NCBI GenBank assembly: GCA_034670065.1
Contig: JAXMOG010000003.1
Coordinates: 226,392-290,391, forward strand
Reading direction: 5' to 3'
DNA: 64,000 nucleotides
DNA from: Pseudoprimorskyibacter sp.
GTDB taxonomy: Bacteria > Pseudomonadota > Alphaproteobacteria > Rhodobacterales > Rhodobacteraceae
How positions within the stretch are numbered: the stretch's first letter is position 1; each line of letters starts with the position of its first letter. Position numbers and translations under genes: made by a program. Shown here one piece after another: positions 2,189 through 58,267 of the stretch. The notes below the pieces were generated by a model. That model ran no database searches. It worked only from the letters and a program-made list of their open reading frames with translations, and was not told the DNA's origin.

Positions 2189-2376
2189 TCCGCGAACCGC
2201 GCCGCCCATTGGCGCACTCACCAGACACGCTAACAACACGCCAAACCTGTCGTTCGGCATGCCCAGTCTTTCCGCCAATTGGCCTAAAGAACCAGCTGAC
2301 CACCGCCTTACCTGCCCGAGATCTGCTCAGAACGAAAAAAACATGCGTAAACAATGTGCAATTGCAGCACGCCATG

Positions 2377-2390
2377 TTGCAGCGCAGCAA
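2377..2390. promoter_or_regulatory. FNR/CRP-family (NnrR/Dnr-like) box candidate TTGCA-GCGC-AGCAA
   Basis: TTG-N8-CAA palindrome with a TTGC....GCAA core, centred about 62 nt upstream of ATG 2446. A perfect palindrome TGCAATTGCA lies next to it at 2358-2367. Confidence 0.3.
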
Positions 2391-2445: not shown

Positions 2446-4539
2446 ATGGCGTCCGGGATTATTGAAATGCATGACGCATTTCGATGGGGAGCAGCGAAGC
2501 TCTTAGGCTCTGGCGATCAGCCACAGCCCAGGATTGTTTTGGATGCTCATATGGCAATAGCTGCTCAGATAAATACCCCAGATCACCTTCTTGCTGCCGA
2601 ACTTCCTGTCCTCGTGATTGGAGGCGGCCCGGTTGGCATGCGAGTGGCGCAGCTGCTCAAAAGCGATGGCGTCGAGGTAATGGTGTTAAGCGCCGAACAC
2701 CATCCGCCCTACAACCGCGTTCGACTGACACCGCTTTTGTCCGGTGAGGTACAGTTTGGCGAAATCACCTTGCCACAAAAGACTGATAACGGTGAAGAAA
2801 TTCCGCTGATCTCGGGGCAGCGCGTACTGTCAATTGACCGGGACAATAAGAAAGTCACAACCAGTGACGGGGCGGTTTGGCCCTACTCCAAGCTGGTGAT
2901 TGCCACTGGTTCATCAGCGTTTATTCCCGGTATCGAGGGCAAAGACCTGTCTGGCGTATTTGCGTTCCGGACTGCAGATGATGCGTCGGCGCTGTTGGCC
3001 CGGTCTTTTTCCGCGCGCAAGGTTGCTGTTATCGGCGGCGGATTATTAGGGCTGGAAGCTGCGCGCGGCATGAAGCAGCGTCAGTGCGATGTAACGGTGA
3101 TCGAACACGAAAGCCGGTTGATGCCCCGCCAGTTGGATACCGAGGCCAGCAAACTGCTGGAGACCCGTATTACCGACATGGGCATCGCCGTGCGCACTGG
3201 CACTGCCGTCAAACAGATTGCTGGCACACACAAGGTGACTGGCCTGCATTTTGCCGATCATACGCATCTGGAATGCGACACCGTGATCCTGTGCACCGGC
3301 GTGCGAGCCAATGTTGATTTGGCCAGACAGTCTGGCTTGGCATTCAATCGCGGTGTCATCGTTAACGATCAGATGCAGACGAATGATCCAGACATTTTTG
3401 CCGTGGGCGAATGCGCCCAACATGATGGGCAGATGTATGGATTGGTTGGGCCCGGATACGCCCAAGCCGAAGTCGCGGCCAAGGTCATCGCCGGACAGCA
3501 TGCCGCCTTTCGCGTCAGCCCCCCGGCCACCAAGCTGAAAGTGGTTGGGGCCGATGTGTTTTCGGTGGGCGATGTCGAACAACTGCAAGACATGGTTGGT
3601 GTGCGCCGCCACATCTGGAAGGCCGACGGGCTGTACCGCTGCTTGTATGTTCGGCGCGGGCAACTGGTGGGGGCCAATGCGGTAGGCCTGTGGGATCAGG
3701 CAGGACGCGTACAGGACGCAGCGCATTCAGGCGCAACGATCTATCCTTGGATGATTCACCGGTTTCGCAAGACGGGCGCGATCTGGCTGGACAACAGCGA
3801 AGACTTGGCCGACCTGCCTGACGCAACGACCATTTGCAATTGCACAGGCGTCACATGCGGGCAAATTCGCGGAGCCATCGCGCAGGGCTGCACCGATGCA
3901 CCGGCAATCAGCGCGCGCACGGGTGCGGGCACCGTATGTGGCACGTGCCAGCCTGTTCTGGAAGAACTGGTGAATGCAGGTGGTCCGCCAAAGCCTGTCG
4001 CCTTCTCCAAACCTCTGCTGGCCCTGTCAGGATTGGCCGCGCTAGCCGCACTTATTCCAATTCTGGTGGGCATGGTCCCGCTGCCAAATAGCTTTGACCC
4101 GGACAGCCTGCGCGTTTGGTTGTGGCGGGACAATATCGTCAAACAATGGAGCGGTTTCATCCTGTTGGGCCTGACGATTTCCGCAGCTCTGATTGGTCTG
4201 CGCAAACGCATTCGCCTGATGGACCGGCTGGGCAGCTATGATGGCTGGCGGTTGGTTCATATCGTTCTGGGGGCCATGATCCTTGTTGGATTTCTGGCTC
4301 ATACCGGGTTTCGCATGGGCGCAAATCTGAATTTCATCCTGGGTTTCAGCTTTGTTGCCACACTGATTTTCGGCGCGGCATCAGGCCTGGCCACCGGTGG
4401 CGAACATAAGCTGCGCGAAAAACGAATTGGCACGGCCCGCAAGCCAGCGCGCCGTTGGCCCACATGGTTGCATATTGCAGCGGTGTGGCCCCTGCCCGTC
4501 TTGCTGATGATCCATATCCTGACGGCGTACACATATTGA
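2446..4539 (+). CDS. NirB-N-terminal-type FAD/NAD(P)H oxidoreductase with BFD-like [2Fe-2S] motif fused to a 5-TM, four-histidine (di-heme b-like) membrane domain
   Basis: Two Rossmann motifs (VLVIGGGPVGMRVA; KVAVIGGGLLGLEAA) and FAVGECAQH. BFD-type cysteines are ICNCTGVTCGQ...GTVCGTCQP. The C-terminal about 175 aa has 5 predicted TM helices and H-x13-H in two of them. No siroheme/nitrite-reductase catalytic domain is present. The start is uncertain (ATG 2446, 2467 or 2551). Confidence 0.8.
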   Translation: MASGIIEMHDAFRWGAAKLLGSGDQPQPRIVLDAHMAIAAQINTPDHLLAAELPVLVIGGGPVGMRVAQLLKSDGVEVMVLSAEHHPPYNRVRLTPLLSGEVQFGEITLPQKTDNGEEIPLISGQRVLSIDRDNKKVTTSDGAVWPYSKLVIATGSSAFIPGIEGKDLSGVFAFRTADDASALLARSFSARKVAVIGGGLLGLEAARGMKQRQCDVTVIEHESRLMPRQLDTEASKLLETRITDMGIAVRTGTAVKQIAGTHKVTGLHFADHTHLECDTVILCTGVRANVDLARQSGLAFNRGVIVNDQMQTNDPDIFAVGECAQHDGQMYGLVGPGYAQAEVAAKVIAGQHAAFRVSPPATKLKVVGADVFSVGDVEQLQDMVGVRRHIWKADGLYRCLYVRRGQLVGANAVGLWDQAGRVQDAAHSGATIYPWMIHRFRKTGAIWLDNSEDLADLPDATTICNCTGVTCGQIRGAIAQGCTDAPAISARTGAGTVCGTCQPVLEELVNAGGPPKPVAFSKPLLALSGLAALAALIPILVGMVPLPNSFDPDSLRVWLWRDNIVKQWSGFILLGLTISAALIGLRKRIRLMDRLGSYDGWRLVHIVLGAMILVGFLAHTGFRMGANLNFILGFSFVATLIFGAASGLATGGEHKLREKRIGTARKPARRWPTWLHIAAVWPLPVLLMIHILTAYTY

Positions 4540-15442: not shown

Positions 15443-16672
15443 ATGAACCAAGGTTTCCTGTCCAAAAACCCATCTGTGCTGTGGTTTCTAGCAGCGCTTG
15501 GTCTGTTCACATTGGGCGTTACAGTTCTGGCCGATGCCACCGGCACCGGGGCGATCTCTACCTCCTTCGTCAAGACGTTGGGCAAAACGCTGTGCCTGTG
15601 CCTGATCGCCATCGCAATGGATGTGGTCTGGGGCTATTGCGGTATCCTAAGCCTGGGCCACTTCGCGTTTTTCGGGATTGGCGGCTATGCCATCGGCATG
15701 TGGCTGATGTACGCCCGAACACGCGACATCGTCACTGAAAATTTGGCCAACAGCGTCATCCCTCCCACCACGCAAGAAATCGAAGATGCCATCGGCACAC
15801 AGATTTTCGGGGTTGTGGGATCCAGTGATTTCCCTTGGATTTGGGCCTTTTCAGACTCGCTGTTTTTGCAGCTGATGATGGTTGTTTTGCTGCCCGGTTT
15901 GATTGCCTTGGTTTTTGGCTGGCTGGCCTTCCGCAGCCGCGTGACCGGTGTCTACCTGTCAATCCTGACCCAAGCGATGACCTTGGCGCTGGCGCTTTAC
16001 CTGTTTCAAAATGACAGCGGGCTTCGTGGCAATAACGGCCTATCTGGCTTGCAGAACATCCCAGGCTTTAATGACGTGCCACAGGCGCAAATCTCTATTG
16101 CGTTCTTTTGGGCATCGGCCCTGGCATTGGGGCTGGGCTATGTGATCTTTGCCTGGGTCATGTCCGGCAAAATGGGCAGTGTTGTGCGCGCCATTCGCGA
16201 TGACGAAGCTCGCGTGCGCTTCCTTGGCTATCACGTCGAAAGCTACAAACTGTTTGTCTTTACCCTGACAGCCATCATCGCCGGGATTGCCGGCGCGCTG
16301 TACTACCCGCAGGCTGGCATCATCAACCCGGCCGAAATCGCGCCGATCGCCTCGATCTATCTGGCGGTCTGGGTCGCAATTGGTGGACGTGGGCGCCTGT
16401 ACGGGGCAGTTATTGGCGCGGCCTGTGTTTCGCTTCTGTCCAGCTGGTTTACCGGCGGCGGTGCGCCCAACATCAACCTGGGCTTCTATCTGGTGCAATG
16501 GACTGATTGGTGGCTTGTACTGCTTGGCCTGAGCTTTGTGGCTGTCACCCTGTTCTTCCCCAAAGGTATTGGCGGCCTGTTCGACTTGATATCGGCCCGT
16601 ATGGTGCCAGACCGCGTGGGGGACTATGGCCCTGACAAAGGCGCACTGCGCAAAGAGGAGGGCTCAGAATGA
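15443..16672 (+). CDS. urtC: Urea ABC transporter permease
   Basis: LivM-type permease (GILSLGHFAFFGIGGYAIGMW) in urt operon context. Confidence 0.9.
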   Translation: MNQGFLSKNPSVLWFLAALGLFTLGVTVLADATGTGAISTSFVKTLGKTLCLCLIAIAMDVVWGYCGILSLGHFAFFGIGGYAIGMWLMYARTRDIVTENLANSVIPPTTQEIEDAIGTQIFGVVGSSDFPWIWAFSDSLFLQLMMVVLLPGLIALVFGWLAFRSRVTGVYLSILTQAMTLALALYLFQNDSGLRGNNGLSGLQNIPGFNDVPQAQISIAFFWASALALGLGYVIFAWVMSGKMGSVVRAIRDDEARVRFLGYHVESYKLFVFTLTAIIAGIAGALYYPQAGIINPAEIAPIASIYLAVWVAIGGRGRLYGAVIGAACVSLLSSWFTGGGAPNINLGFYLVQWTDWWLVLLGLSFVAVTLFFPKGIGGLFDLISARMVPDRVGDYGPDKGALRKEEGSE

Positions 16673-22952: not shown

Positions 22953-23861
22953 TTAGCCCTCTACAACCTCTAAAAACTCCCGCCATTCCCGCTTGCTCAA
23001 GCCGGATGTCTCTTGCGTGACCTCTTCACCCTTCAACATCCGCCGAACGCAATCAAGGGCTGCGCCAGACAGGTTCGCACCGCCCATGCGGTAATCCTCG
23101 AAGGCTTTGTAGGCAAAAGGCACCCAATCGGCCACGATCTTGCAGATCGCATCGGCATAAACACGGATTTCGTATTGGGCGTGAGCATCGGCGCGCAGGC
23201 GCAGAAAATGCAGCAGGTTGTGCAGGTCCACTTTCCAATACCATTGGGTATAGATGTTGGCAGGCAGGTTCATACGCGCCAATTCGCGGGCCAGGCCTTG
23301 TTGGCCGTCTTGGCTGATCATCTCTTCGTAATGGTCATACGCCTTCATCGCGTCTTCGCGCAGGTAACGCAGGACGCGCTCGGCCTCTTCACCGCTCAGC
23401 GCTTCACCCCGACCCTGATTATTGATGACAGATTGTGCCGCCAGTGCATCAGGTTCCGGGATATAAAATTCGCGATCCAGAATGGAATAACGGGCCGAGT
23501 ATTCGTTGACGTTGGCTGTCCGGTGACGGATCCATTGACGCGCAACAAAGACCGGCAGTTTGACGTGCAGCTTGATTTCGCACATTTCAAACGGGGTCGA
23601 ATGCCAGTGACGCATCAGATAGCGGATCAATCCTTCGTCATTCTGGACGGATTTCGTTCCCTTGCCATAAGACACGCGCGCCGCTTGGCAAATGGCAGCA
23701 TCGTCCCCCATGTAATCAATCACCCGCACCAGGCCGTGATCCAAGACCGGATACGCGGTGTACAGATGCGCCTCCATTCCTTCTGACACGGCGCGTAGGG
23801 TCTGGCGCGGTGTGCTGCGCTGTTCGTCAATTTCGGCCTGTTGTTCGGGCGAAAGCGGCAT
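22953..23861 (-). CDS. thyX: FAD-dependent thymidylate synthase
   Basis: ThyX signature [17 protein letters not shown]. The start is taken at MPLSPEQQ (the ORF-track start 23960 is an extension). Confidence 0.9.
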
Positions 23862-48543: not shown

Positions 48544-49620
48544 TCAGGCAATCCCACCTTTGATAAGACCCTGCGCCAGTTGGGCATAAGCATCGGCCAT
48601 AACACCGCCTTGGGCGGCGATCGGCGTCCCGCCATCGCCCGCCAAGCGCGTGTCCAGATCAATTGGCAGGCTGGCAAGCAAGGGCAGGCCCAGCTTCTTG
48701 GCTTCTGATGCAACACCGCCATGCCCAAAGATATGGGATTCGTGCCCGCAATTGGGACAGTGAAACAGCGACATATTTTCGATCAGCCCCAATACCGGGG
48801 TTTTTAACGTGGAGAACATGTCCAGCGCTTTGCGGGCATCCAGCATCGCCACATCCTGCGGTGTGGAAACCACGATGGCGCCTGTCAGCTTTGCCTTTTG
48901 GCACAAAGTCAGCTGAACATCCCCAGTTCCCGGCGGCAGATCGACAATCAGCACGTCCAATTCGCCCCAATTGACCTGCCCCATCATCTGTTGCAACGCG
49001 CCCATCAGCATCGGACCACGCCAGACAACGGCCTTGTCATCCGGCATCATCAGACCGATGGACATCAAGGTGACGCCATGCGCGTGCAGCGGCTCTATCG
49101 TTTTTCCATCGGGGCTGGCTGGCCGTTTGGACACGCCCATCATGCGCGGTTGCGATGGACCGTATATATCAGCATCCAGCAGACCAACCTTGCGACCCTG
49201 TAGTGCCAAGGCGACAGCCAGATTTGACGAAACAGTGGATTTGCCCACACCGCCTTTGCCTGACCCGACTGCGATGATGCGTTTGACCCCCTTTGGGTTC
49301 ATGGGTTCAGCCTGTGGTTTTGGGTGCCCGCCGATCTTTAAAGACGGCGCAGATTGCTGCGGCGCAGCAGAGGCGCCATGGGCTGTCAGAACGACACTGA
49401 CGGCGCTAACACCAGCTACAGCCTGCACGGCTTCTTCTGCAGCCTTGCGAATTGGCTCCATCTTGCGGGCCATATCGGGTGTTGGGGCCTCGATAACGAA
49501 TCGCACCGAGTCCCCTTCTATGGTCAATGCACGAATCAAATCGTGTGATAGCAACGACTTGCCGTCGGGTAACCCAACTTTTTCCAATGCCGCCAGAATG
49601 TCATCTCGGTTTAGAGACAT
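48544..49620 (-). CDS. apbC: Fe-S cluster carrier ATPase (Mrp/ApbC/NBP35 family)
   Basis: IIAVGSGKGGVGKSTVSSNLAVALA and CPNCGHESHIFG. The start is at MSLNRDDILAAL (the track start 49674 is an extension). Confidence 0.9.
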   Translation of the reverse strand: MSLNRDDILAALEKVGLPDGKSLLSHDLIRALTIEGDSVRFVIEAPTPDMARKMEPIRKAAEEAVQAVAGVSAVSVVLTAHGASAAPQQSAPSLKIGGHPKPQAEPMNPKGVKRIIAVGSGKGGVGKSTVSSNLAVALALQGRKVGLLDADIYGPSQPRMMGVSKRPASPDGKTIEPLHAHGVTLMSIGLMMPDDKAVVWRGPMLMGALQQMMGQVNWGELDVLIVDLPPGTGDVQLTLCQKAKLTGAIVVSTPQDVAMLDARKALDMFSTLKTPVLGLIENMSLFHCPNCGHESHIFGHGGVASEAKKLGLPLLASLPIDLDTRLAGDGGTPIAAQGGVMADAYAQLAQGLIKGGIA

Positions 49621-49855
49621 GTGAGAACTCCCAAAATTTGATGAAATAAGCGGCGATTTTTGTACGAGATGCAACCCCAGCGGCCAGATTCACAGCGCTT
49701 TGAACTAAAAGGTGAGAATTCAACCCCTCATTCATGCGCATGCTGCATACCAGCATTGATTTAATGTGGGATTGTGCACTCGCAGCATTTGCCCCATCTT
49801 GGTTTCAACAAACACGAAACAACATACACACACACGAAATAGAGCGAATACTGAA

Positions 49856-50068
49856 ATGGCCTTTGCATCCAATATCTCACATGCCCAAAACGGTTTTACC
49901 CTGGCCGGCATTCTGGCGCGCTTTCGCAGCCACATGGAGCGTCGTCGGGTTTTTCGCAGCACTTACAACGAGCTGGTGCAGCTGTCTGATCGCGAGCTTT
50001 CCGACCTGGGTTTGAACCGGTCGATGATCCGCCGCCTGGCACTGCAAGCTTCGCTGGAAGCAAAATAA
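49856..50068 (+). CDS. ccaF1: DUF1127 small protein (CcaF1-like), 70 aa
   Basis: ...HMERRRVFRSTYNELVQLSDRELSDLGLNRSMIRRLA is the DUF1127 signature (R-rich, L.LSDRELxDxGLxRxxI). It is followed 11 nt later by CCUCCUCCC-loop hairpins, as in the Rhodobacter sphaeroides RSP_6037-CcsR locus. Confidence 0.8.
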   Translation: MAFASNISHAQNGFTLAGILARFRSHMERRRVFRSTYNELVQLSDRELSDLGLNRSMIRRLALQASLEAK

Positions 50069-50079
50069 TTCGGTTTCGA

Positions 50080-50140
50080 CTGGCCTCTCCTCCTCCCTGG
50101 CCAGCCGATTGGGTGAAAGCGCTCTCCTCCTCCCTGCGCT
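50080..50140 (+). ncRNA. ccsR: CcsR/cuckoo-type sRNA unit 1 (two hairpins with CCUCCUCCC loops)
   Basis: Hairpin CTGGCC-[TCTCCTCCTCCCT]-GGCCAG lies at 50080-50104. Hairpin AGCGC-[TCTCCTCCTCCCT]-GCGCT lies at 50118-50140. Confidence 0.75.
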
Positions 50141-50179
50141 GACACCAAAATACGGAGCGTTTCGCTCCACTGACATGAC

Positions 50180-50268
50180 CCGGGCTTTCTCCTCCCTTCC
50201 TGCCCGGACATGACCCCGGCGATGGCATCTTCCTCCTCCCTGATGTCATCGCCCCGGAATTCCGGGGC
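50180..50268 (+). ncRNA. ccsR: CcsR/cuckoo-type sRNA unit 2
   Basis: Hairpin CCGGGC-[TTTCTCCTCCCTTCCT]-GCCCGG lies at 50180-50207. Hairpin GATGGCATC-[TTCCTCCTCCCT]-GATGTCATC (one G-U pair) lies at 50221-50250. The palindromic hairpin GCCCCGGAATTCCGGGGC lies at 50251-50268. Confidence 0.7.
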
Positions 50269-50290
50269 CGAATTGGCCTCACAGAAGATC

Positions 50291-50368
50291 GGAGCCCCTC
50301 TCCTCCTCCCTGGGGTCCCGTAACCTGGAAACGGCGGCGCACCTCCTCCCTAGCGCCGCCGTTTTTTT
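50291..50368 (+). ncRNA. ccsR: CcsR/cuckoo-type sRNA unit 3, ending in a Rho-independent terminator
   Basis: Hairpin GGAGCCCC-[TCTCCTCCTCCCT]-GGGGTCCC lies at 50291-50319. The terminator hairpin GGCGGCGC-[ACCTCCTCCCTA]-GCGCCGCC lies at 50333-50360 and is followed by G+T7. Confidence 0.75.
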
Positions 50369-50370
50369 GC

Positions 50371-50435
50371 GTTTGGGGCAGCCAAACGAGGGGCCAGCCC
50401 CTCGTGCTCCCCGAGGTATTTCCAAACAGAAGAAG
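50371..50435 (-). repeat. Dispersed intergenic repeat, copy A (core CTTCTTCTGTTTGGAAATACCTCGGGGAG on the minus strand plus GC hairpins)
   Basis: The core at 50407-50435 matches 58976-59003 in inverted orientation (25 of 29 positions, 1 gap). Adjacent hairpins are ACGAGGGG-CCAG-CCCCTCGT (50386-50405) and GTTTGG/CCAAAC (50371-50387). Confidence 0.6.
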
Positions 50436-50506
50436 AACAGGGGGTTTTCCCCGCCCATCCCATTGGGTACAGCAGAGCGGATGAATTTTGCCCTGCGAGA
50501 TACCCA

Positions 50507-53434
50507 ATGACGATGGACAAGACCTTTGATGCCAGCACTGCCGAAGCGCGGATTTACGAGACTTGGGAAAACGCCGGCGCGTTCAAGGCCGGCGCGAACG
50601 CGTCCAGGCCCGAAACCTTCTCCATCATGATCCCGCCGCCCAATGTGACAGGGTCGCTGCACATGGGGCATGCGTTTAACAATACGCTGCAAGATATTCT
50701 GATCCGCTGGAAGCGCATGCAGGGGTATGACACACTGTGGCAGCCCGGCACGGATCACGCGGGTATTGCCACGCAAATGGTGACAGAGCGCGAGATGGCG
50801 GCCAATCAGGAGCCATCGCGCCGTGAAATGGGGCGCGAGGCCTTTGTTCAGCGGGTCTGGCAGCAAAAAGTCAAATCGCGCGGAACAATCATTGGTCAGC
50901 TGAAACGGCTGGGCGCCTCCTGCGATTGGTCGCGTGAAGCCTTTACCATGGGCGGCGCTGCCGGTGATCCCGATGCGGGCAAGGGCGCGCCGAACTTCCA
51001 CGACGCGGTGATCAAGGTCTTTGTGGACATGTATCACAAAGGGCTGATCTATCGTGGCAAACGGTTGGTGAACTGGGACCCGCATTTTGAGACGGCCATT
51101 TCCGATTTGGAAGTGGAAAACCTCGAAGTTGCGGGCCATATGTGGCACTTCAAATACCCGTTGGCGGGTGGCGCGACCTATACCTATGTCGAGAAGGATG
51201 AGGATGGGACTGTCGTTCTGGAAGAAGAGCGCGATTACATCTCTATCGCCACGACACGGCCTGAAACCATGCTGGGGGATGGCGCTGTTGCTGTGCACCC
51301 ATCAGATGAACGTTATGCGCCAATTATTGGAAAACTATGCGAGATTCCGGTTGGCCCCAAAGAGCAGCGTCGTTTGATCCCAATCATCGTTGATGAGTAC
51401 CCGGACCCCGATTTCGGCTCTGGCGCGGTGAAGATTACCGGCGCGCATGACTTCAATGACTACGGAGTGGCCAAGCGCGGTGGCATTCCGCTGTACCGCT
51501 TGTTGGACACACGCGCGCAAATGCGCGACGACGGTGCGCCCTATGCAGAGGCCGCCGCCATTGCGATGGCTGTGGCCAAGGGCGAGCGCGCGTTGACCGG
51601 TGCCGAGGCCGATACCGTGAACCTGGTGCCTGATCATCTGCGCGGGCTGGACCGGTTTGAGGCGCGTAAAAAAGTGGTGGCTGAGATCACCGCCGATGGC
51701 TTGGCCGTGATGACCAATTCGGACGATCCGCGACTGGGCCCCAAACCCAAGCTGAAAAAAGGGGAAGAGGCGCCGCCCGTCACCCAAGTGCCCTTGGTAG
51801 AAGCCAAGGCGATTATGCAGCCGTTTGGCGACCGCTCGAAGGTGGTGATTGAGCCGATGTTGACGGACCAGTGGTTTGTGGACGCGGATAAAATCGTGGG
51901 TCCGGCACTGGACGCCGTCAAGGATGGCACCGTTAAGATCGCACCAGAAAGCGGCGAGAAGACCTATTACCACTGGCTGGAGAACATCGAGCCATGGTGT
52001 ATCTCGCGTCAGCTGTGGTGGGGGCATCAGATTCCGGTTTGGTTCGATGCCGAAGGCAACGAGTATTGCGCACCAACTGAAGAAGACGCTCAGGCGCTTG
52101 CGGGTGCAGGCGTTGCTTTGACCCGCGACCCCGACGTGCTGGACACCTGGTTCTCTTCCGGCCTTTGGCCCATCGGCACGCTGGGCTGGCCCGAAGAAAC
52201 AGATGAGCTGAAAAAATACTTCCCCACCAGCGTTCTGGTGACCGGGCAGGACATTTTGTTCTTCTGGGTCGCGCGGATGATGATGATGCAACTGGCCGTG
52301 GTCGATGAGATCCCGTTCCACGATGTGTACCTGCACGGGCTGGTGCGTGACGCCAAGGGCAAGAAGATGTCCAAGTCGCTGGGCAATGTCGTTGATCCGC
52401 TTGAGATCATTGACGAATACGGCACCGATGCGCTGCGTTTCACCAATGCGGCAATGGCCAGCCTTGGCGGCGTTTTGAAGCTGGATATGCAGCGGATTGC
52501 AGGCTACCGCAACTTTGGCACCAAGCTGTGGAACGCCACACGCTTTGCCGAGATGAACGGTGTCTTCGAAGGGCGCGTTCCGTCATCTGACGTGCCAATG
52601 GCCACAGCCACGGTGAACAAGTGGATCATCGGCGAAACCGCCCGTGTGCGTGCCGAGGTAGATGGCGCATTGGCCGCCTATCGCTTTGATGATGCCGCTG
52701 CAGCGCTGTACCGCTTTGTCTGGGGTAAGGTTTGCGATTGGTATGTCGAATTTTCCAAACCCTTGCTGGATGAAAAAGCCCCGGAACGTGCGGAAACACA
52801 GGCTGTTATGGGCTGGGTCATCGACCAGTGCCTGATCCTGCTGCACCCGATCATGCCTTTCATCACCGAAGAGCTTTGGAGTGTGACAGGCGACCGCGAC
52901 AAGATGTTGATCCACGCGGATTGGCCAACCTATGGCGATGATCTGATCGACGCGAACGCAGATGTCGAAATGAACTGGACCGTAGCGCTGATCGAAAGCA
53001 TCCGCTCTGCACGGGCACAGATGCATGTGCCTGCAGGGCTGTATCTGCCATTGGTCGTACGTGACATGGATGGCGCCGCGCGCGCAGCCTGGGACAACAA
53101 CGAGACGCTGATCAAACGTCTGGCCCGTATTGAGGACCTGACGGTGGTTGACGCCTTCCCCAAGGGCTGTGCCACGGTTCCTGCCCAAGGCGCGACCTTT
53201 GGATTGCCATTGGAAGGCACCATCGACATTGCCGAAGAAATGGCACGTCTGGAAAAAACGCTGGGCAAGTTGGCCAAGGAAATTGGCGGGCTGAAGGGCC
53301 GTTTGAACAACCCCAAATTCGTGGAAAGCGCCCCAGACGAAGTGGTGGAAGAAGCCCGCGCCAATCTGGCGGCGCGCGAAGGCGAAGAAGCCAAGCTGAA
53401 AGACGCGCTGGAGCGTTTGGCAGAACTGGGCTGA
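50507..53434 (+). CDS. valS: Valine--tRNA ligase
   Basis: 975 aa; [16 protein letters not shown] (HIGH), KMSKSLGN (KMSKS), and a C-terminal coiled coil. Confidence 0.95.
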
Positions 53435-56816: not shown

Positions 56817-57998
56817 TCAGGCGGATTCCAACGCCTGCTTCAGGTCCGCAATCAGATCGTTCACATCTTCCAAACCTGCCGACAAACGCACCAACCCGTC
56901 AGATATTCCCAGGATGTCTTTGTCTTCCTGCGGCAGACGCTGATGCGTCGTAGTCGCCGGATGAGTGGCGATTGATTTGGCATCGGCGAAGTTGTTGGAA
57001 ATGGTGACAATCTTCAACGCGTTCAGGAACCGGAAACACGCCTCCTTGCCGCCAGCGACGTCAAAAGCCAGCACAGTGCCCCCTGACGGCGCCTGTGACA
57101 TGGCAATGGCGTGTTGCGGGTGGCTGGGCAACTGCGGATACCGCACAGACGTAAGCTTTGGATGCCCGTTCAGTGCCTGTGCAATCGTCATCGCTGTGGC
57201 GGCCTGTTCGCGCACACGCAAATCCAAGGTTTCCAGAGCCTTCAGATGGACCCAAGCGGTAAACGGGTTCATCGCAGCACCGGTGTGCTTGATATAGGTT
57301 TCGATGGGGCCGCGAATGATTTCTTTGTCACCACAAATGATGCCGCCCAGCATCCGGCCCTGCCCATCCACATGTTTGGTGGTCGAAACAATCACCAGAT
57401 CGGCGTTGCACGCTTTGGCATAGGAAAAGACAGGCGTGGCCATGGCATTGTCCACCAACACCTTGGCACCGTTTCGATGCGCCACTTCGCAAACATACCG
57501 CAGGTCAATCACTTCCAGCGTCGGGTTGGAAATGCTTTCCAGAAAGACCAATGTCGTGTCAGGCCCAATCGCCGCGTCCCATGCCGCGTTATCCGTGCCG
57601 TCAACCAGTGTGATTTTCACCCCAAAGCGAGCCAACACATCCTGCAGCACATACAGGCAAGATCCAAACAGCGCGCGCGAAGCAACCACATGATCGCCCG
57701 CCTTCAGCAACGCCATCAAGGCTCCGTTCACCGCCGCCATACCAGATGCGCAGGCAAAGGCATCTTCATAGCCTTCAATCAGCGCCATGCGGTCTTCGAA
57801 CATGCGTACCGTCGGGTTGCCATAGCGGGCATAGATGAACTCATCATCTCCCGCTTTCTGAAACCTCGCCTCCGCAGCTTCGGCCGTGTCATACACAAAA
57901 CCTTGCGTCAGAAACATGGCTTCGCTCACCTCACCATATTGGCTGCGGCGCGATCCGGCGTGAACCAATTGTGTCCGCCGGCTCCAGTCATTGCTCAT
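56817..57998 (-). CDS. metZ: O-succinylhomoserine sulfhydrylase (Cys/Met PLP family)
   Basis: MSNDWSRRTQLVHAGSRRSQYGEVSEAMFLTQGFVY...VVSTTKHVDGQG (PLP lysine). The ORF-track start 58160 is an extension into the leader. Confidence 0.85.
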   Translation of the reverse strand: MSNDWSRRTQLVHAGSRRSQYGEVSEAMFLTQGFVYDTAEAAEARFQKAGDDEFIYARYGNPTVRMFEDRMALIEGYEDAFACASGMAAVNGALMALLKAGDHVVASRALFGSCLYVLQDVLARFGVKITLVDGTDNAAWDAAIGPDTTLVFLESISNPTLEVIDLRYVCEVAHRNGAKVLVDNAMATPVFSYAKACNADLVIVSTTKHVDGQGRMLGGIICGDKEIIRGPIETYIKHTGAAMNPFTAWVHLKALETLDLRVREQAATAMTIAQALNGHPKLTSVRYPQLPSHPQHAIAMSQAPSGGTVLAFDVAGGKEACFRFLNALKIVTISNNFADAKSIATHPATTTHQRLPQEDKDILGISDGLVRLSAGLEDVNDLIADLKQALESA

Positions 57999-58037
57999 AT
58001 CAGTCGTCCTCTGGGTGCGCAGGCAGGCGCACCTCAC

Positions 58038-58070
58038 AAAAAAAACCCCGTTTCGGCCAAGCGAAAGGGG
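58038..58070 (-). terminator. Intrinsic terminator/attenuator inside the metZ leader
   Basis: On the minus strand CCCCUUUCG-(6 nt)-CGAAA(C)GGGG is followed by U8, 39 nt upstream of the metZ ATG. Confidence 0.6.
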
Positions 58071-58082
58071 GCTTTCGTCTGA

Positions 58083-58133
58083 CCTTTTAGCGGAATATTT
58101 AACGTGGCCCGCAATCCGGTAACAAATCGCCAC
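58083..58133 (-). promoter_or_regulatory. SAM-II-like (metA-motif) riboswitch aptamer candidate
   Basis: The minus strand reads GUGGCGAUUUGUUACCGGAUUGCGGGCCACGUUAAAUAUUCCGCUAAAAGG. It has a P1 stem GUGGC/GCCAC, GAUUU after P1, and an A-rich 3' tail CCGCUAAAA able to pair with the loop UUGCGG (pseudoknot). It lies upstream of a methionine-biosynthesis gene. Confidence 0.5.
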
Positions 58134-58267
58134 GCCGTCGAAATAAAGCCCGCACAGCAACAGGTCAAGCCTGTCTTACACAGGGCACATCACCGCAATG
58201 CGCGCATTTTGCCCCCCATTGCCGATCCCGCCGAAACCCGCATGATGGCCCAAACTCAGGAGGCCCC

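Follow-up and report, generated by a model that had tools for sequence, protein, structure and literature searches.

The locus described here raises the question of what is encoded by a short gene for a DUF1127 protein together with the run of hairpins that begins just beyond its stop codon. An earlier note on this DNA had taken the hairpins for a cluster of CcsR/cuckoo sRNAs, and our analysis arrives at a closely similar answer: judged from its sequence, the region is very probably a ccaF1-ccsR operon, that is, a CIN1-type cuckoo sRNA locus made up of the DUF1127 gene and three sRNA units. Directly established are the open reading frame and its domain, the six hairpins with their loops, the terminator, three units delimited by a covariance model, the positional conservation of the arrangement, the covariation of stems, and a promoter-like block upstream. 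The locus is a well-kept but ordinary instance of a described alphaproteobacterial stress module. The sRNA family, its linkage to DUF1127 and the 2-2-2 layout have already been published, and the locus contributes little new on the sRNA side. What may perhaps be new is the fusion of a conserved dyad and a TGCA-N6-GCAT box to a sigma-32-like promoter, and we offer this dual-box architecture as a lead and not as a result. The coordinates are collected in Table 1; they refer to the window, by which we mean the whole 64-kb stretch (64,000 nucleotides) that was analysed.

Table 1. Features of the locus, in window coordinates, with the evidence or detail for each.
Feature	Coordinates	Strand	Evidence or detail
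Near-palindromic dyad TGCTGCATACCAGCA	49741..49755	.	consensus TGCTGCAT[A/G]GCAGCA; putative transcription-factor site, about 31 nt before the promoter box
Promoter-like element TTGTGCACTCGCAGCATTTGCCCCATCT	49772..49799	+	-35 TTG 49772-74; -10 CCCCATCT 49792-99; 17-nt gap
TGCA-N6-GCAT box, in promoter spacer	49774-87	+	motif match
ccaF1-like gene	49856..50068	+	ATG 49856; TAA 50066-50068; 70 aa
Cuckoo/CcsR unit 1 (HP2)	50068..50153	+	orthologue-derived CM R1, 44.5 bits, E=4.5e-8
Hairpin 1	50080-50104	+	loop 50086-98; local fold
Hairpin 2	50118-50140	+	loop 50123-35; local fold
Spacer hairpin 1, motif-less, GGAGCG-UUU-CGCUCC	50154..50168	+	folds; between units 1 and 2
Cuckoo/CcsR unit 2 (HP2)	50170..50260	+	CM R1, 46.5 bits, E=1.7e-8; Rfam CcsR1, 22.3 bits
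Hairpin 3	50180-50207	+	16-nt loop 50186-201, UCUCCUCCC; folds
Hairpin 4	50218-50253	+	12-bp stem, loop 50230-41; folds
Spacer hairpin 2, motif-less, CCGG-AAUU-CCGG	50254..50265	+	within palindrome CCCCGGAAUUCCGGGG; folds; between units 2 and 3
Cuckoo/CcsR unit 3 (HP2)	50281..50370	+	CM R1, 63.8 bits, E=4e-12
Hairpin 5	50294-50316	+	loop 50299-311; folds
Hairpin 6	50327-50366	+	loop 50341-52; folds

The DUF1127 gene and its product

The 70-residue product matches the Pfam family DUF1127 (PF06568) over residues 23-59 (E=1.7e-13; score 50.5 bits, cut-off 23.3). It contains ten arginines, eight of them inside the C-terminal domain, and in its length and its Arg-rich C-terminal DUF1127 domain it has the form of CcaF1-type proteins, which are 60-75 residues long. 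The lengths of homologues, 70-72 residues, back ATG 49856 as the start codon, and the open reading frame is annotated as a gene by the caller in public contigs. The gene downstream of the locus is valS. An identical 70-residue protein is present in a 378-kb NCBI contig and in marine metagenome assemblies (Logan runs and one SOLA sample of the ENA). Citreicella, Shimia and Ruegeria are, at 50-64% identity, the nearest named relatives, and the host is therefore, on this sequence evidence, an uncultured marine alphaproteobacterium of the Roseobacter group.

A Smaug/SAM-like fold is a published proposal for CcaF1. The AF2 model of the protein encoded here is three-helix bundle-like, with a pLDDT of 77.7. 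Foldseek comparison of this model to the PDB gave a best match with E=1.2 and none to SAM or Smaug, and a phmmer search of the PDB with the protein sequence gave no match; because there is no significant PDB match, the Smaug/SAM-like likeness is neither confirmed nor refuted. We also considered that the gene might avoid a strong Shine-Dalgarno sequence and thereby escape its own anti-Shine-Dalgarno loops. This was rejected, since the pairing energy of its ribosome-binding site (-3.8 kcal/mol, with an orthologue mean of -4.6 kcal/mol) is near the window median of -4.2.

Six hairpins in three units

The first stem starts at 50080, and the DUF1127 gene ends 11 nt before it, as the earlier note had described; this is the adjacency expected of a CIN1/ccaF1-ccsR locus. 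Local folding of 55-nt pieces places all six copies of the motif in loops, and the loop coordinates (Table 1) are identical to those that had been proposed. All six loops carry CUCCUCCC; the full 9-mer CCUCCUCCC is present in five of them, again as claimed, and loop 3 has the one-base variant UCUCCUCCC, in which the 8-mer is kept. In sequence, the six stems bear no relation to one another (CUGGCC, AGCGC, CCGGGC, GGCGAUGGCAUC, GCCCC and GGAAACGGCGGCGC). Within the window CTCCTCCC occurs six times, always on the plus strand (at 50090, 50127, 50189, 50233, 50303 and 50343), compared to an expectation of 1.14 from dinucleotide shuffles, none of which (0/100) reaches six. A folding energy of -135 kcal/mol is obtained for the whole 307-nt segment (z = -9.2 relative to dinucleotide shuffles), and unconstrained MFE folds give the expected hairpins, with hairpin 5 appearing in the local fold only. 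The last hairpin had been interpreted as a Rho-independent terminator, and it has the form of one: a GC-rich stem with the core CGGCGGCGC/GCGCCGCCG that leads into T7 at 50362-50368, the U7 of the transcript, such that hairpin 6 is both part of unit 3 and the terminator of the operon. A simple terminator scanner skips it because its 12-nt loop is larger than the 8-nt limit of the program.

The Rfam models recognise these hairpins incompletely. A scan of the whole 64-kb window in gathering mode gave no cuckoo-type match. In a second scan, using permissive local filters on an 821-nt region, ar14 (RF02344) scored 58.3 bits on unit 3 (E 7e-10) and 45.8 bits on unit 1 (E 4e-7), the better of these missing the gathering threshold of 58.8 by 0.5 bit, and CcsR1 (RF02791) scored 36.5, 22.8 and 22.3 bits on units 3, 1 and 2 (E 4e-7, 4e-3 and 6e-3), below its gathering threshold of 65.3; no other family came close in that region. 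The covariance-model check proposed in the earlier note has therefore a divided outcome, in that the best E-values (7e-10 for ar14 and 4e-7 for CcsR1) speak for the assignment but both scores lie below the curated cut-offs. RF02344 presumes exactly three hairpins, and HP2 and HP4 members are mis-annotated or missed as a result (Reinkensmeier and Giegerich, PMC4615179). At the locus described here the ar14 model forces three hairpins over unit boundaries, and the sub-threshold scores fit this published limitation of fixed-structure models.

Because the curated Rfam thresholds were not reached, we built an independent, orthologue-based test, a covariance model (R1) whose source alignment comprises 71 two-hairpin units, all of them taken from other species. 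In the whole 64-kb window R1 finds exactly three tiled two-hairpin units, the next match having an E-value of 0.28, and the prediction that six loops would give three units is borne out. At the level of sequence, the locus has every feature by which the cuckoo family and CIN1 are defined, and falls short only of Rfam's two score cut-offs. Each of the three units has two adjacent hairpins without a multiloop, within the family's range of two to four, the stems vary in sequence with their pairing kept, and the loops carry CCUCCUCCC, in full in five of them and as UCUCCUCCC in loop 3. In practical terms, true HP2 cuckoo clusters of uncultured Roseobacter-group bacteria escape the curated thresholds of RF02344 and RF02791, and annotation pipelines then pass over roughly 300 nt of functional RNA.

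The units differ in detail. The second hairpin of unit 1 is unusually short, with a 5-bp core compared to the approximately 10-bp GCGGCGGCG consensus, and the sequence GUUUCG at 50073-78, at the start of this unit, resembles the mapped 5' RNase E site of CcsR1, GUUUCC. AU-rich linkers follow units 1 and 2, and the AU-rich stretch CAAAAUA before the spacer hairpin at 50154 is likely a processing zone. Small spacer hairpins are also found at equivalent inter-unit places in orthologues, for example at 2761-77 in locus L006 and 2774-90 in locus L008.

The arrangement is conserved well beyond this organism. A scan with one genome per species yielded 80 loci encoding relatives of the DUF1127 protein, and those of the Rhodobacterales have 2-18 copies of CTCCTCCC that begin 17-45 nt past the DUF1127 stop, on the coding strand and with none on the opposite strand. 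A divergent apbC/mrp gene lies upstream of the DUF1127 gene in 34 loci, and the loci are therefore positional orthologues; 39 such Rhodobacterales loci share the order of a DUF1127 gene and then 2-18 loops, which is the conservation downstream of DUF1127 orthologues that the earlier note had anticipated. In the Rhizobiales loci that were fetched, a triplet of the motif is located approximately 350-500 nt upstream of the DUF1127 reading frame, and both orientations, with the RNA downstream or upstream of DUF1127, have been described by Gruetzner et al. (PMC8034643). Motif copies lie inside hairpin loops in 310 of 311 cases, with a mean of -19.3 kcal/mol versus -7.4 for shuffled flanks. The consensus of the second hairpin, taken over the 71 orthologous units, has compensatory changes at all ten of its pairs, consistent with the claim that the stems differ and covary; covariation in the first hairpin was judged by per-copy folding, as MAFFT lost the stem register there. 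The loop-to-loop spacing of 37/62/44/70/40 is the 2-2-2 layout of Ruegeria loci, and the 46 loci surveyed show the module clearly, with loops numbering 2-18, small hairpins as spacers, and some copies in decay.

The upstream region

The conserved TTG-N17-CCCCATCT element upstream of the DUF1127 gene fits the sigma-32/RpoH consensus by resemblance. RpoHI and RpoHII promoters of R. sphaeroides have a consensus of TTG at -35 and TAT at -12, and CCCCATCT is without the TAT of the R. sphaeroides form; many orthologues read CCTATNT or CTTATCT at the -10 place, and a -10-like hexamer is present in 31 of the 46 loci. We infer a transcription start near 49806 and a single transcript extending from about 49806 to about 50368, the latter because a scan finds no sigma-70-like promoter site and no internal terminator within 49500-50600. 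Elsewhere in the window, a sigma-32-like string at 23684 was dropped as it appears inside a coding region.

We note that the promoter region is conserved far beyond what a promoter needs. Of the 46 Rhodobacterales loci, 34 have the dyad with up to two mismatches; in each case it precedes the second box by 30-31 nt, and it has no occurrence elsewhere in the approximately 198 kb of those loci. A TTGTGCA-N3-GCAGCA box is present in 40 of the 46, of which 39 also have the hairpin array, and TGCA-N6-GCAT is present in 35. In S. meliloti, TGCA-N6-GCAT is the box of the LysR-type regulator LsrB at PnfeR1, and it is required for transcription of NfeR1. With a transcription start near 49806, the boxes are centred near -58 (the dyad) and -26 (TGCA-N6-GCAT); such a spacing, of three helical turns, is the recognition/activation (RBS/ABS) site geometry that is usual for LysR-type regulators.

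One possible reading, which we advance tentatively and consider doubtful, is that the ccaF1-ccsR operons of Rhodobacterales are controlled by a dedicated DNA-binding regulator of paired boxes in addition to an RpoH-type sigma factor. The pair would consist of the dyad TGCTGCAT(R)GCAGCA and of TGCA-N6-GCAT overlapping the -35 and spacer, 30-31 nt apart. If this is correct, the common ancestor of Rhizobiales and Rhodobacterales would already have had its cuckoo sRNAs under LsrB-like control, despite the inverted order of RNA and protein genes in the two groups. The fetched Rhizobiales loci show, over the 130 nt that precede their first loop, no TGCA-N5/6-GCAT that recurs at a constant distance; because their transcription starts vary in position, this comparison is uninformative. 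A tblastn search of the 64-kb window with an approximate E. coli OxyR query found no gene for a LysR-type regulator, and none of the open-access literature searched mentions LsrB together with CcsR. The conserved dual-box promoter is a testable lead on the regulation of a widespread stress sRNA operon in marine Rhodobacterales. A second, similar pair of boxes (2355-2389) precedes a 697-aa flavoprotein/BFD reading frame, but two exact matches in 64 kb are not significant alone.

Proposed mechanism, alternatives and known systems

By analogy with characterised relatives we infer that the gene and the units are transcribed together and induced by stress, that the transcript is processed by RNase E and bound by the protein, and that the products regulate their targets in trans through anti-Shine-Dalgarno pairing. 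Transcription would most likely start at the sigma-32/RpoH-type promoter (49772-49799), read through the 70-residue DUF1127 gene and a 3' UTR of about 300 nt, and end at hairpin 6 and its U7 tract (about 50368). The 3' UTR would comprise the three two-hairpin units, parted by AU-rich linkers and the small spacer hairpins, and RNase E would be expected to cut the linkers, as in R. sphaeroides, giving three sRNAs of approximately 85-90 nt; the DUF1127 protein, again by analogy with R. sphaeroides, may bind the precursor and modulate maturation of the sRNAs. In that organism co-transcription and RNase E processing of the equivalent layout are experimental findings, cleavage occurs beside U residues at the 5' end of each unit (in CcsR1, GUUUCC), and maturation of the CcsR precursor is altered by CcaF1, which binds it (PMC8034643). 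Each sRNA would present two single-stranded CCUCCUCCC loops that mimic the anti-Shine-Dalgarno sequence of 16S rRNA, and these would pair with G-rich ribosome-binding sites of target mRNAs, leading to a block of translation and to decay. Among the relatives, the anti-Shine-Dalgarno seeds of NfeR1 occlude the ribosome-binding site of ntrB, and CcsR1-4 act on flhR mRNA. Inside the window the best real-looking anti-Shine-Dalgarno targets are an ABC-transporter ATPase gene (16669, GAGGAGGG) and a DsrE-like gene (18599, GGGAGGA), which are leads only, as any strong Shine-Dalgarno sequence scores well.

The units could be independent sRNA genes with a promoter or promoters of their own that merely neighbour the DUF1127 gene, as with NfeR1/ar14 in Sinorhizobium: in S. 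meliloti a separate sigma-70 promoter drives the cuckoo RNA NfeR1, which is situated upstream of the DUF1127 gene, and the motif triplets of the Rhizobiales loci are likewise several hundred nucleotides (approximately 350-500) upstream of the reading frame. We think this quite unlikely here, where the first stem follows the stop codon after just 11 nt, 49500-50600 contains no sigma-70-like promoter site, and no U-tract terminator precedes 50362. The sole conserved promoter-like block is upstream of the reading frame; of the 40 loci that have it, 39 have the array as well, and the R. sphaeroides equivalent is known from experiment to be co-transcribed and processed by RNase E. It is also conceivable, but in our view very unlikely, that the array yields no trans-acting sRNA and works in cis only; the structured 3' UTR would then serve to stabilise or end the DUF1127 mRNA, or to sequester either ribosomes or the protein. 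Every hairpin is indeed on the mRNA, the last is its terminator, and the CcaF1 protein of R. sphaeroides does bind the precursor. Yet the 8-9-nt single-stranded loop is invariant over 311 copies while the stems drift, which argues for selection on base-pairing by the loop rather than on mere structure, and the homologues CcsR1-4 and NfeR1 have been shown to act in trans via anti-Shine-Dalgarno seeds.

That the region is a different kind of element altogether, namely a minus-strand protein gene (the 203-aa reading frame at 49896-50507), a CRISPR-like or tandem repeat, or a REP-type palindrome, is extremely improbable. Repeated palindromes are present in the sequence, and long minus-strand reading frames (49896-50507 and 49877-50176) do exist mechanically, as the earlier note had pointed out; its expectation that standard gene callers would place them is not supported, as four public contigs from this organism leave the hairpin region uncalled and neither product turns up among about 15 billion predicted proteins. 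The 203-aa frame, moreover, overlaps the conserved DUF1127 gene. The earlier dismissal of a CRISPR array is well founded: TRF reports no tandem repeat array at the hairpin region, and in place of regular direct repeats of at least about 20 nt there are 8-9 nt in common at irregular spacing, with the loop alone conserved. The motif is found nowhere else in the 64 kb, unlike dispersed REP elements, and its position relative to DUF1127 is fixed across genera.

The preferred reading, a ccaF1-ccsR operon, also agrees with what is known of characterised systems, and the match to the R. sphaeroides arrangement proposed in the earlier note holds for gene order, strand and HP2 units (PMC8034643, PMC4615179). 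Relative to CcsR1-4 and CcaF1 (RSP_6037) of Rhodobacter (Cereibacter) sphaeroides 2.4.1 (PMC8034643), the locus has the same gene order and strand, a protein of about 70 residues with the domain at about 23-60, HP2 units in the 3' UTR with CCUCCUCCC in both loops, one terminal Rho-independent terminator, an RpoH-type promoter-like element upstream, and a GUUUC motif at the start of unit 1. It differs in having three units rather than four, CCCCATCT at -10 and valS downstream; it scores only 22-37 bits with the Rfam CcsR1 model (GA 65.3), reflecting diverged stems. The cuckoo family is defined by two to four adjacent hairpins with CCUCCUCCC in each loop and variable stems, and a '222' layout is listed for R. 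pomeroyi (PMC4615179). With this CIN1 locus of Ruegeria pomeroyi DSS-3 the present one shares the family definition, the adjacency to DUF1127, the 2-2-2 layout and the spacing, although the host is a different, uncultured organism and one loop has a 1-nt variant of the motif. NfeR1/ar14 (RF02344) of S. meliloti and other Rhizobiales has the same anti-Shine-Dalgarno loop motif, the linkage to DUF1127 and TGCA-N6-GCAT in the promoter region, and of the Rfam models it is ar14 that scores best at our locus; the Rhizobiales RNA has three hairpins and its own promoter and lies upstream of DUF1127, whereas the two-hairpin units described here are downstream, in the 3' UTR.

Conserved elements upstream of the DUF1127 gene

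A block of approximately 65 nt is kept 5' of the DUF1127 gene, both in the window (49727-49800) and in the loci L001-L043, L052, and L055 that encode relatives of the protein, with the consensus CCATGC-N3-TGCTGCAT(R)GCAGCATTG-N12-ATTGTGCA-N3-GCAGCAT-N3/4-CCCCATNT. It contains a dyad and, 30-31 nt away, a TGCA-N6-GCAT box that matches the LsrB box of Sinorhizobium meliloti, and both are joined to a sigma-32-like promoter. The arrangement suggests that a putative LysR-type or other regulator acts here in addition to RpoH. A related sequence, TTTTGCAGCGCAGCATATATT (TGCA-N5-GCAT), lies about 115 nt 5' of the DUF1127 ORF start in many Neorhizobium and Rhizobium loci (among the Rhizobiales loci L044-L080), between the ar14-type triplet and the ORF; it precedes the protein gene and not the sRNA.

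The window has a further box pair, in which TGTGCAATTGCAGCA is the same as the box at 49773-87 except within the N3, and TGTTGCAGCGCAGCA follows 20 nt beyond. This pair is a candidate second site for the putative regulator of the upstream block, although taken alone it is without statistical significance.

Some database homologues (P0003 and P0011) are 101-102 residues long as a consequence of an upstream start picked by the gene caller. The equivalent GTG in the window is at 49766, 5' of the predicted promoter, and we therefore regard the 70-aa form as the credible one.

Variation among the cuckoo arrays

The number of loops per array ranges from 2 to 18, with long runs at a spacing of approximately 37-41 nt in the Cypionkella/Pseudorhodobacter loci, and some hairpins carry degenerate loops such as UCUCCUCCUCCUU, UCUCCUUCC, ACCUUCUCCC, and UUCCUCCCUU (L001, L004, L013, L017, L021, L025, L030, L033, and L041). 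Together these features look like birth-and-death evolution through unit duplication and decay. In the window, the second hairpin of unit 1 (50118-50140) has a core stem of just 5 bp (AGCGC/GCGCU), whereas 71 orthologous units share a conserved stem, about 10 bp long (GCGGCGGCG/CGCCGCCGC), at the same position. Unit 1 is possibly a copy that is weaker or has decayed in part.

Other elements in the window

Among plausible ribosome-binding sites in the window, those at 16669 and 18599 have the best complementarity to the loops, and as predicted anti-Shine-Dalgarno targets they are only leads. The SAM_alpha element is an ordinary methionine-pathway riboswitch.

Positions of additional features in the window
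Feature	Position	Strand	Context
Box pair TGTGCAATTGCAGCA + TGTTGCAGCGCAGCA	2355-2389		Intergenic, 5' of ORF 2446-4539
697-aa ORF	2446-4539		Pyr_redox_2 / Rubredoxin_C / BFD-[2Fe-2S]
Ribosome-binding site GAGGAGGG	16669	+	Precedes branched-chain-type ABC-transporter ATPase
Ribosome-binding site GGGAGGA	18599	-	Precedes DsrE-like gene
SAM_alpha riboswitch (RF00521)	58067-58143	-	58 bits, E 2e-10
Cys/Met-metabolism PLP enzyme gene	~56817-58040	-	Downstream of SAM_alpha riboswitch
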